DNA from: Candidatus Aenigmatarchaeota archaeon
Lineage (GTDB): Archaea > Aenigmatarchaeota > Aenigmatarchaeia > QMZP01
Reading direction: 5' to 3'
Length of the DNA stretch: 29,089 nt
Assembly (NCBI GenBank): GCA_016202725.1
Contig: JACQOD010000055.1
Span: 1 to 29,089 of the forward strand
Below are positions 8,949-15,554 of the stretch, in pieces; within the stretch, counting starts at the first letter, position 1; every line of letters starts with the position of its first letter. Position numbers and translations under genes: made by a program. The notes below the pieces were generated by a model. It did no database searches. It was given only the letters and a program-made list of their open reading frames with translations, and was not told the origin of the DNA.

Positions 8949-8972
8949 CCCTCCCGGCCAATTCCATGGTAG

Positions 8973-9196
8973 GCCGGGGTGGCAGAACGGCTAAACGTTC
9001 GTGGGCCACTGCGCCAGACTTGAGCACGAGATATGATGATCCCCGCCTCGTGCGGGGAAATGATTTTTTGGCTTGACTCTGATACGGCGGAACATGAGGA
9101 GCAACCCTCGTGAAGATATCTGGTGTCCGCAAAGGCGCGCCGCAGGGATGCGGCCCACCGCGGAAGGACGTACAGGTTCGAATCCTGTCCCCGGCG
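8973..9196 (+). tRNA. tRNA-Ser(UGA) with three introns (8995-9009, 9025-9117, 9133-9165)
   Basis: Removing three BHB-bounded segments gives a canonical type II tRNA: GCCGGGG TG GCAGAACGGCTAATGC G CCAGA CTTGAGA TCTGG T GTCC GCAA GGAC GT ACAGG TTCGAAT CCTGT CCCCGGC G. Confidence 0.92.
9025..9117 (+). ncRNA. Candidate intron-encoded box C/D sRNA
   Basis: ATGATGA (9033-39), CTGA (9079-82), ATGAGGA (9094-9100), degenerate GTGA (9110-13); terminal stem CACGAG/CTCGTG. Confidence 0.55.
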
Positions 9197-13638: not shown

Positions 13639-13804
13639 TGAGCAGTCACCAATTGCATCTTAATGGGGGGTTATCTTTATAAACCTTTTCGGGATGCGCG
13701 TTCTTCCCCCTGTTTTCCGCGAGGGGATGTTCCCGGTCTATCGTTTCTTCGCGCCCCCCATGCGAATAAAAGGCCCAGCCACAATAGTGGTATGCTGGGA
13801 ACAA

Positions 13805-13922
13805 GCTGGGATATGGTATCCCCACCCATGGGCCGAACGGCAAGGCGCAGATTCCTTTGGAAGCGCAAGATTGCTAATCCTGTGGGCGCAAGCCCTTGAG
13901 AGTTCGAATCTCTCTCCCAGCG
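13805..13922 (+). tRNA. tRNA-Ser(GCU) with two 18-nt introns (8/9: 13813-13830; 29/30: 13851-13868)
   Basis: Mature: GCTGGGA TG GCCGAACGGCAAGGC G CAGGA TTGCTAA TCCTG T GGGC GCAA GCCC TT GAGAG TTCGAAT CTCTC TCCCAGC G. Both introns form BHBs (TGGG/CCCA; GCGC/GCGC). Confidence 0.93.
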
Positions 13923-14132
13923 CTTCCTTCACGGCTAGGCCTTGGTCCGCTACACACGGCATTCCGGCAAGAAATAGGCGCTGCCATGATCGAGCCCGAT
14001 GAGTCCGTGCTGTGCCAATCATTCGAAGGCCGGGCTGCTCTCTTCCGCTGCGCAGCCGGAAGCGCAAGCTCTACGCCGCCGTAGTATGAGCCTCCGCGAC
14101 CCCGTAGCGGGCTCTGCGCTGCGCAGTGGAAT

Positions 14133-15468: not shown

Positions 15469-15554
15469 TGCGACCGCCGGGATTTGAACCCGGGTCACCG
15501 GCTTGGGAAGCCGAGATCCTGTCGTGCCCGAAGGAACCACTAGACTACGGTCGC
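15469..15554 (-). tRNA. tRNA-Gly(CCC) with a 15-nt D-loop intron (15521-15535)
   Basis: Acceptor GCGACCG/CGGTCGC, anticodon CCC at 15505-07. Removing TCCTTCGGGCACGAC (UUCG hairpin, relaxed BHB) restores GTCTAGTGGTAGGAT. Confidence 0.93.

Follow-up and report, generated by a model that had tools for sequence, protein, structure and literature searches.

The stretch of DNA analysed here (the window) comprises 29,089 nucleotides of Candidatus Aenigmatarchaeota archaeon, whose genome (G000) is a groundwater MAG of about 1 Mb and 75% completeness. At 13805-13922 on the forward strand it carries a gene for tRNA-Ser(GCU) that is interrupted by two BHB introns of 18 nt each, located at positions 8/9 and 29/30 of the tRNA. 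Exon 1 (GCTGGGAT, 13805-13812) supplies tRNA nucleotides 1-8 and ends with U8, as in all intron-less orthologues. It is followed by intron 1 (13813-13830), by exon 2 (nucleotides 9-29, 13831-13850), which encodes the D arm and the start of the anticodon stem, by intron 2 (13851-13868) and by exon 3 (nucleotides 30-73, 13869-13922), which holds the anticodon GCT, the long variable arm, the T arm, the 3' acceptor strand TCCCAGC (13915-13921) and G73 (13922). Removal of both introns in silico yields an 82-nt class II tRNA with a normal cloverleaf, recognized by ARAGORN as tRNA-Ser(gct); the spliced molecule has the long variable arm, 3-bp D stem, G73 and GCU anticodon of a class II tRNA-Ser. The unspliced gene is called neither by ARAGORN nor by Rfam at the gathering score. 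A Logan contig assembled from a groundwater DNA run, possibly the window's own source sample, is identical to the window over 13650-14050, and aligning DNA contigs to the window reproduced the assembly and otherwise gave T-arm cross-matches.

Intron 1 forms a canonical hBHBh' motif together with the exon sequence around it. The outer helix (2 bp) pairs G1C2 with G10C11, the central helix (4 bp) pairs UGGG (nucleotides 3-6) with CCCA, and the inner helix (3 bp) pairs UGG with CCA; two bulges of three nucleotides each, A7U8-A and UG-G9 (hyphens at the splice sites), lie on opposite strands and contain the splice sites. The initial annotation had described this intron as a perfect BHB that consumes acceptor-strand nucleotides, and all of the helices and bulges it drew are confirmed. 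Since the motif is built from exon nucleotides 1-6, it occupies six of the seven nucleotides of the 5' acceptor strand. The second BHB intron that the annotation had placed at 29/30 is likewise borne out: its coordinates follow from in silico splicing, and its central helix (GCGC/GCGC), inner helix (UUCC/GGAA) and bulges (AG-A and AA-G) can be read from the sequence by hand, the outer helix of this reading being weak. Intron 2 is shared with the orthologue in a genome of the same genus (G001).

The genome encodes the proteins that such a gene calls for, with the splicing endonuclease EndA represented by a PF01974 match on contig C97 (E 1.6e-28) and the RtcB ligase by a PF01139 match on contig C20 (E 2.8e-167). 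The RNase P RNA model RF00373 is matched in 69 of the 91 genomes of the order; in G000 the match is partial and below the gathering score (C36:4476-4682, E 2.6e-11). The window holds three further tRNA genes, at 18-136 and 15469-15554 on the reverse strand and at approximately 8972-9195 on the forward strand; they are interrupted as well, their inserts lying in the D loop, the anticodon loop and the variable arm. Many genomes of the family have just 4-10 Rfam-detected tRNAs among the matches listed, which, together with the interrupted genes, points to very heavy disruption of tRNA genes in this family. Directly after G73, where the trailer begins (13923-13925), almost every Ser(GCU) gene in the order has CT(T), whether or not it contains an intron, and its 3' end thereby forms a conserved palindrome, AGCGCT.

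Upstream of exon 1 the acceptor strand is present a second time. The sequence GCTGGGA at 13794-13800 is an exact match to tRNA nucleotides 1-7, is fully complementary to the 3' acceptor strand at 13915-13921, and is separated from exon 1 by the 4-nt spacer ACAA (13801-13804), so that the copy and the coordinates originally reported for it are correct. We refer to it as the leader copy. To survey the rest of the assembly, we anchored a scan on T arms and counted upstream occurrences of the complement to the 3' acceptor strand. Among the genuine tRNA genes found in this way, the 5' strand is doubled in two, Ser(GCU) and Cys(GCA); a third doubled 7-mer, on contig C110, was set aside as we judged it to belong to no tRNA gene. 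The tRNA-Cys(GCA) gene, on contig C115, reads GCAGAGG-AAC-GCAGAGGT, followed by a 23-nt intron at 8/9 and then G9. Its intron, too, forms a perfect hBHBh' motif (AGAG/CUCU, GUGCC/GGCAC and G1C2/G10C11), and the product spliced in silico is 71 nt long and accepted by ARAGORN with the anticodon gca. No 8/9 introns other than those of these two genes were found in the assembly, nor any second gene for either anticodon.

The position of the copy relative to the promoter suggests where transcription begins. The octamer GAATAAAA at 13764-13771, which includes AATAAAA (13765-13771), is the sole AT-rich octamer upstream of the gene and a likely TATA-like promoter box; such boxes are conspicuous in G000 because the genome is GC-rich. 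Measured in 20 ordinary tRNA genes of G000, the distance from the end of the box to the mature 5' end is 22-27 nt. In both the Ser and the Cys gene the distance from the box to the copy is 22 nt, while that to the real strand is 33 nt (Ser) or 32 nt (Cys). The spacing between box and copy thus equals the normal spacing between box and 5' end, and on this sequence evidence the primary transcript probably starts at the copy, in agreement with the start that had been predicted from AATAAAA. Three intron-less tRNA genes of G000 (C2:312-384, C2:886-956 and C45:2041-2113) have T as their first nucleotide (T1, TGGGGAG...CTCCCCA) and an encoded GCCA after the gene, and no recognizable archaeal promoter box precedes any of the three. 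They differ in appearance from the rest of the tRNA genes in the assembly and may be foreign or mis-binned.

We searched for Ser(GCU) genes by pattern in the family (47 genomes), the order (91 genomes) and the phylum (371 genomes). Nine genomes have such a gene with an 8/9 intron, and in eight of these (G000, G016, G022, G028, G043, G075, G257 and G262) the leader copy is present; genes with both the intron and the copy come from four families and nine genera. The Cys gene of G022 has the same layout of copy and 8/9 intron, bringing the genomes with the Cys version to two. A scan of metagenomes added 10 genuine Ser genes with an 8/9 intron, nine of them with the copy. Taken together, 19 of 21 genes with an 8/9 intron (Ser and Cys, from the nine genomes and the metagenome contigs) carry the copy, a count in which independence is overstated as the genomes are related. 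The 4-bp central and 2-bp outer helices of the BHB are present in all 21. For tRNA species other than Ser(GCU), our census of 8/9 introns is a partial one, drawn from truncated Rfam matches in nine genomes: these are mostly due to D-loop introns, the one new 8/9 case being the G022 Cys gene. BLAST retrieved about 20 Cys orthologues, all intron-less, and missed the G022 gene.

In all copy-bearing genes the parts follow one order: the copy, a spacer of 2-23 nt, the real strand with U8, and the 8/9 intron. The spacers are mostly A-rich (3-10 nt in the eight Ser genomes) and not conserved in sequence, the introns of the eight Ser genomes range from 14 to 31 nt, and spacers and introns are otherwise impossible to align. 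In four contigs of the lineage with the acceptor strand GCTGAGA (L214, L216, L228 and L233) the spacer is conserved as AAAC.GCCT.T; either these contigs are close relatives of one another or the spacer serves an additional role in them.

The copy is tied both to the intron and to the sequence of the acceptor strand. No copy precedes an intron-less Ser(GCU) gene (pattern GCTGRGRT-GGCCGA) in any of the 371 genomes, and the congeners G001, G003 and G061 have neither the intron nor the copy. The upstream sequences of G000 and G001, when aligned, are so diverged that no positional homology of the copy emerges, and the GTGGT they share just upstream is only a hint. In the metagenome scan, 10 chance matches to the pattern in GC-rich bacterial contigs served as a further control, and the copy was found in none of them. 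The absence of a duplicate from orthologues with the 8/9 intron had been named at the outset as an observation that would refute the proposed switch; what we find is its presence in the great majority of these genes and its absence from the intron-less ones. The covariation of leader and acceptor, which had been suggested as a check in related genomes, is also seen. Four variants of the acceptor strand occur (GCTGGGA, GCTGAGG, GCTGAGA and GCAGAGG), and the copy matches in all four: in G043, for instance, acceptor and copy are both GCTGAGG, and the variant GCTGAGA, found in four of the nine copy-bearing metagenome genes, is accompanied by a matching copy. The single departure is in G075, where the copy is GCTGGGG and the real strand GCTGGGA, an A-to-G change that preserves pairing through G7.U66. 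Whether the copy follows the real strand by identity or the 3' strand by complementarity can hardly be told apart in these data, this G.U pair being the only case that separates the two. Copy positions 1, 2 and 7 are conserved although they lie outside the central BHB helix, as expected if all seven base pairs form with the 3' strand. The fetched loci contain 53 other tRNA genes; a 7-mer capable of such pairing, with a G.U pair, precedes one of them, where we estimate by hand that approximately 0.3 would be expected by chance. In locus L058 (G063:C33), an intron-less tRNA-Cys gene, GTGGAGG lies 9 nt upstream of GCGGAGGT and can pair with the 3' strand via one G.U; it is due either to chance or to an 8/9 intron that has since been lost, of which it would be a relic.

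Next to the conservation, folding energies bear on what the copy might do. We compared constrained ensembles of seven precursors (six Ser and one Cys) at 37 and 20 °C. In the presence of the copy, the BHB is favoured over the real acceptor helix by 3.6-5.0 kcal/mol in all seven precursors, forcing the central BHB helix carries no cost, and at the unconstrained energy minimum the copy is paired to the 3' strand in every one of them. When the leader is omitted, the BHB becomes less stable than the cloverleaf by 5.3-10.8 kcal/mol, again in all seven. Shuffling just the seven bases of the copy gives mean values of +1.5 to +4.9 kcal/mol. From the energies with the copy, without it and with its sequence shuffled it follows that, in the folding model, the copy shifts the balance by approximately 9-15 kcal/mol and does so in a sequence-dependent manner. 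The suggestion in the initial annotation that the leader copy is a placeholder on the 3' strand is thus upheld by the model, in which adding the leader flips the balance to the BHB.

We propose that the leader copy is a cis-encoded surrogate, or decoy, acceptor strand that makes splicing possible and conceals the RNase P site until the intron is gone, a reading to which we assign a probability of about 0.7. Transcription would start at or beside the copy, and in the primary transcript the copy would pair with the 3' acceptor strand (nucleotides 66-72). The real nucleotides 1-6, freed in this way, would be available as pairing partners to the 3' end of the intron and to nucleotides 10-11, forming the BHB at 8/9 for the splicing endonuclease. 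In the same fold the real -1/+1 junction would lie outside the acceptor helix, and RNase P should therefore not cut before splicing. An unspliced RNA that lacks the leader would be locked into the cloverleaf, with the BHB unable to form. Cleavage by the endonuclease and ligation by RtcB would bring the real strand beside the D arm, where it could displace the identical copy by branch migration as the native tertiary fold forms; in the final step RNase P would remove the 11-nt leader. With the 8/9 intron removed, the two-dimensional model keeps favouring the pairing of the copy, by 1.3-6.3 kcal/mol, which means that the exchange would need tertiary folding or capture by RNase P. We infer where transcription starts, which strands pair in vivo, in what order the events follow and that the strands are exchanged; that the leader is a switch which orders splicing and 5' processing is a well-supported inference rather than a demonstration.

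One lineage has the intron and lacks the copy. The two exceptions among the 21 genes are in fact one sequence, found in G030 (L049, G030:C38) and on the identical contig L225. This suggests that the copy is not strictly required or that something else replaces it there. The 12-nt leader of the G030 gene holds AGCGCU, which is complementary to A70-G73 and the first two bases of the trailer, and in constrained folding this leader reduces the penalty on the BHB from +7.1 to +2.2 kcal/mol. In addition, the T loop of this gene is interrupted by a long intron with a CCCAGG/CCTGGG hairpin that resembles the acceptor helix. These features may be alternative means of occupying the 3' strand.

Of the other explanations, the one that fares best is that the copy has no function and is a by-product of intron gain or loss: a relic of tandem duplication, a tract of gene conversion or the former 5' end stranded by a mobile element, which has not yet decayed. 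Intron and copy do appear and vanish together within genera (G000 versus G001, G016 versus G061, G028 versus G003), the Cys version was seen in two genomes only, and the distance from the promoter box suggests that the copy sits at the site of the ancestral 5' end. A duplication origin is plausible, as it fits the joint gain and loss with the intron, but it is also compatible with a copy that functions. As for the particular case of a target-site duplication, we rejected it: the repeats are separated by nothing more than the 2-23 nt spacer, and the intron lies downstream of both rather than between them. A decaying remnant is also hard to reconcile with a 7-mer that has stayed intact across four families while spacers and introns diverged beyond alignment, that tracks four variants of the acceptor and whose single change still pairs, or with an energy flip of 9-15 kcal/mol that depends on the sequence of the copy. 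We consider this explanation unlikely, with roughly one chance in eight.

Somewhat less probable still is a reading in which the upstream copy is the true exon. A longer intron would then extend from just after the copy to G9, and the mature tRNA would begin at the transcription start without any need for RNase P. It is true that, measured from the promoter box, the copy is where a mature 5' end would normally be expected, that the CCCA of the central helix can pair with either UGGG, and that in the GCTGAGG lineage, where a T follows the copy, both readings yield an identical tRNA. The product, however, would have A8 in 13 of 19 genes and G or C in two more, whereas every intron-less orthologue has U8. 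No inner helix adjoins the bulge in this arrangement, and pairing of the real strand with the 3' strand combined with pairing of the copy with the intron makes a pseudoknot and not a BHB; for this topology and for the A8 product we rejected a precursor in which the intron takes the copy as its partner and the acceptor helix is formed by the real strand. The downstream reading, by contrast, yields a canonical 3-4-3 BHB for every one of the 21 genes, and G030 has the same BHB without any copy at all. We also considered a second CCCA in intron 1 of the Ser gene as a partner for the copy and discarded it, as it is not conserved in other genomes. That the repeat is a product of chance or an assembly artefact has next to no probability left: although a single 7-mer repeat is not rare when many features are scanned, for any one gene a repeat within about 20 nt has a chance probability of approximately 1e-3, the same architecture recurs in 19 assemblies or contigs and in two tRNA families, with 0/10 among the chance matches and 0/371 among genomes with intron-less genes, so that its recurrence in other genes and genomes excludes chance, and the Logan contig mentioned above, though possibly from the window's own source sample, repeats the assembled sequence.

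The surrogate strand would answer a specific puzzle, namely how a BHB can form when one half of its exon sequence is locked in a very stable acceptor helix. Archaeal tRNA introns close to the 5' end have hitherto merely been catalogued; a decoy strand is a testable answer that predicts an obligatory order of processing. The model would also explain why such genes are invisible to tRNA finders, and it offers a rule for annotation, which is to search for a doubled 5' strand. In physical terms it would be a natural, minimal strand-displacement switch that is triggered by RNA cleavage and ligation. Since intron and decoy come and go together, the element has a bearing on the gain and loss of tRNA introns. 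A broader proposal, to which we give even odds, is that surrogate acceptor strands form a general and hitherto undescribed class of cis-acting RNA elements in Archaea, allowing BHB introns to become established no more than about a dozen nucleotides from the start of the tRNA, with a strand-exchange switch that forces splicing to come first and RNase P second, and with gain and loss alongside the intron revealing the way in which such introns originate. The features by which we would define the class, a leader 7-mer able to pair with nucleotides 66-72, co-occurrence with an acceptor-proximal intron and covariation with the acceptor, are all found in the copy-bearing genes described here.

In the full-text literature searched, which included review articles on tRNA introns in Archaea and a preprint of 2026 on those of Asgard archaea, we found no account of an acceptor strand repeated in the leader so as to relieve competition between acceptor and BHB. 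With respect to that literature, the Ser(GCU) gene combines a pre-tRNA of a known kind, one with BHB introns, with an accessory element not previously described. Non-canonical and multiple BHB introns are known from tRNA genes of the Thermoproteales, ARMAN and other DPANN archaea (PMC4090602, PMC4033280), and the breadth of the splicing endonuclease in such lineages, with a broad-specificity EndA, has been documented (PMC3239211, PMC5829648). The introns described here resemble these in being spliced by protein, in lying at sites other than 37/38, in occurring several to a gene and in being missed by standard tRNA finders. They differ in that the motif is there described as composed of exon and intron alone, whereas here the leader duplicates the acceptor strand.

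Split and permuted tRNA genes, as in Nanoarchaeum equitans, Caldivirga and Cyanidioschyzon (PMC3218864, PMC3978253), offer a second comparison. In these, as in the present case, sequence outside the mature tRNA base-pairs to build the substrate of the endonuclease and is later discarded. However, their leader and trailer form the BHB themselves and are cut off by EndA, whereas the leader described here stays outside the BHB and would occupy nucleotides 66-72, its removal presumably falling to RNase P. In transcription attenuators and in the expression platforms of riboswitches, two strands compete for one partner and the helix that forms decides the next step. The proposed leader switch has mutually exclusive helices in common with them. 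Unlike in attenuators and riboswitches, neither a ligand nor a ribosome takes part: the trigger would be the excision of the intron, and the outcome would be an order of processing rather than on/off control.
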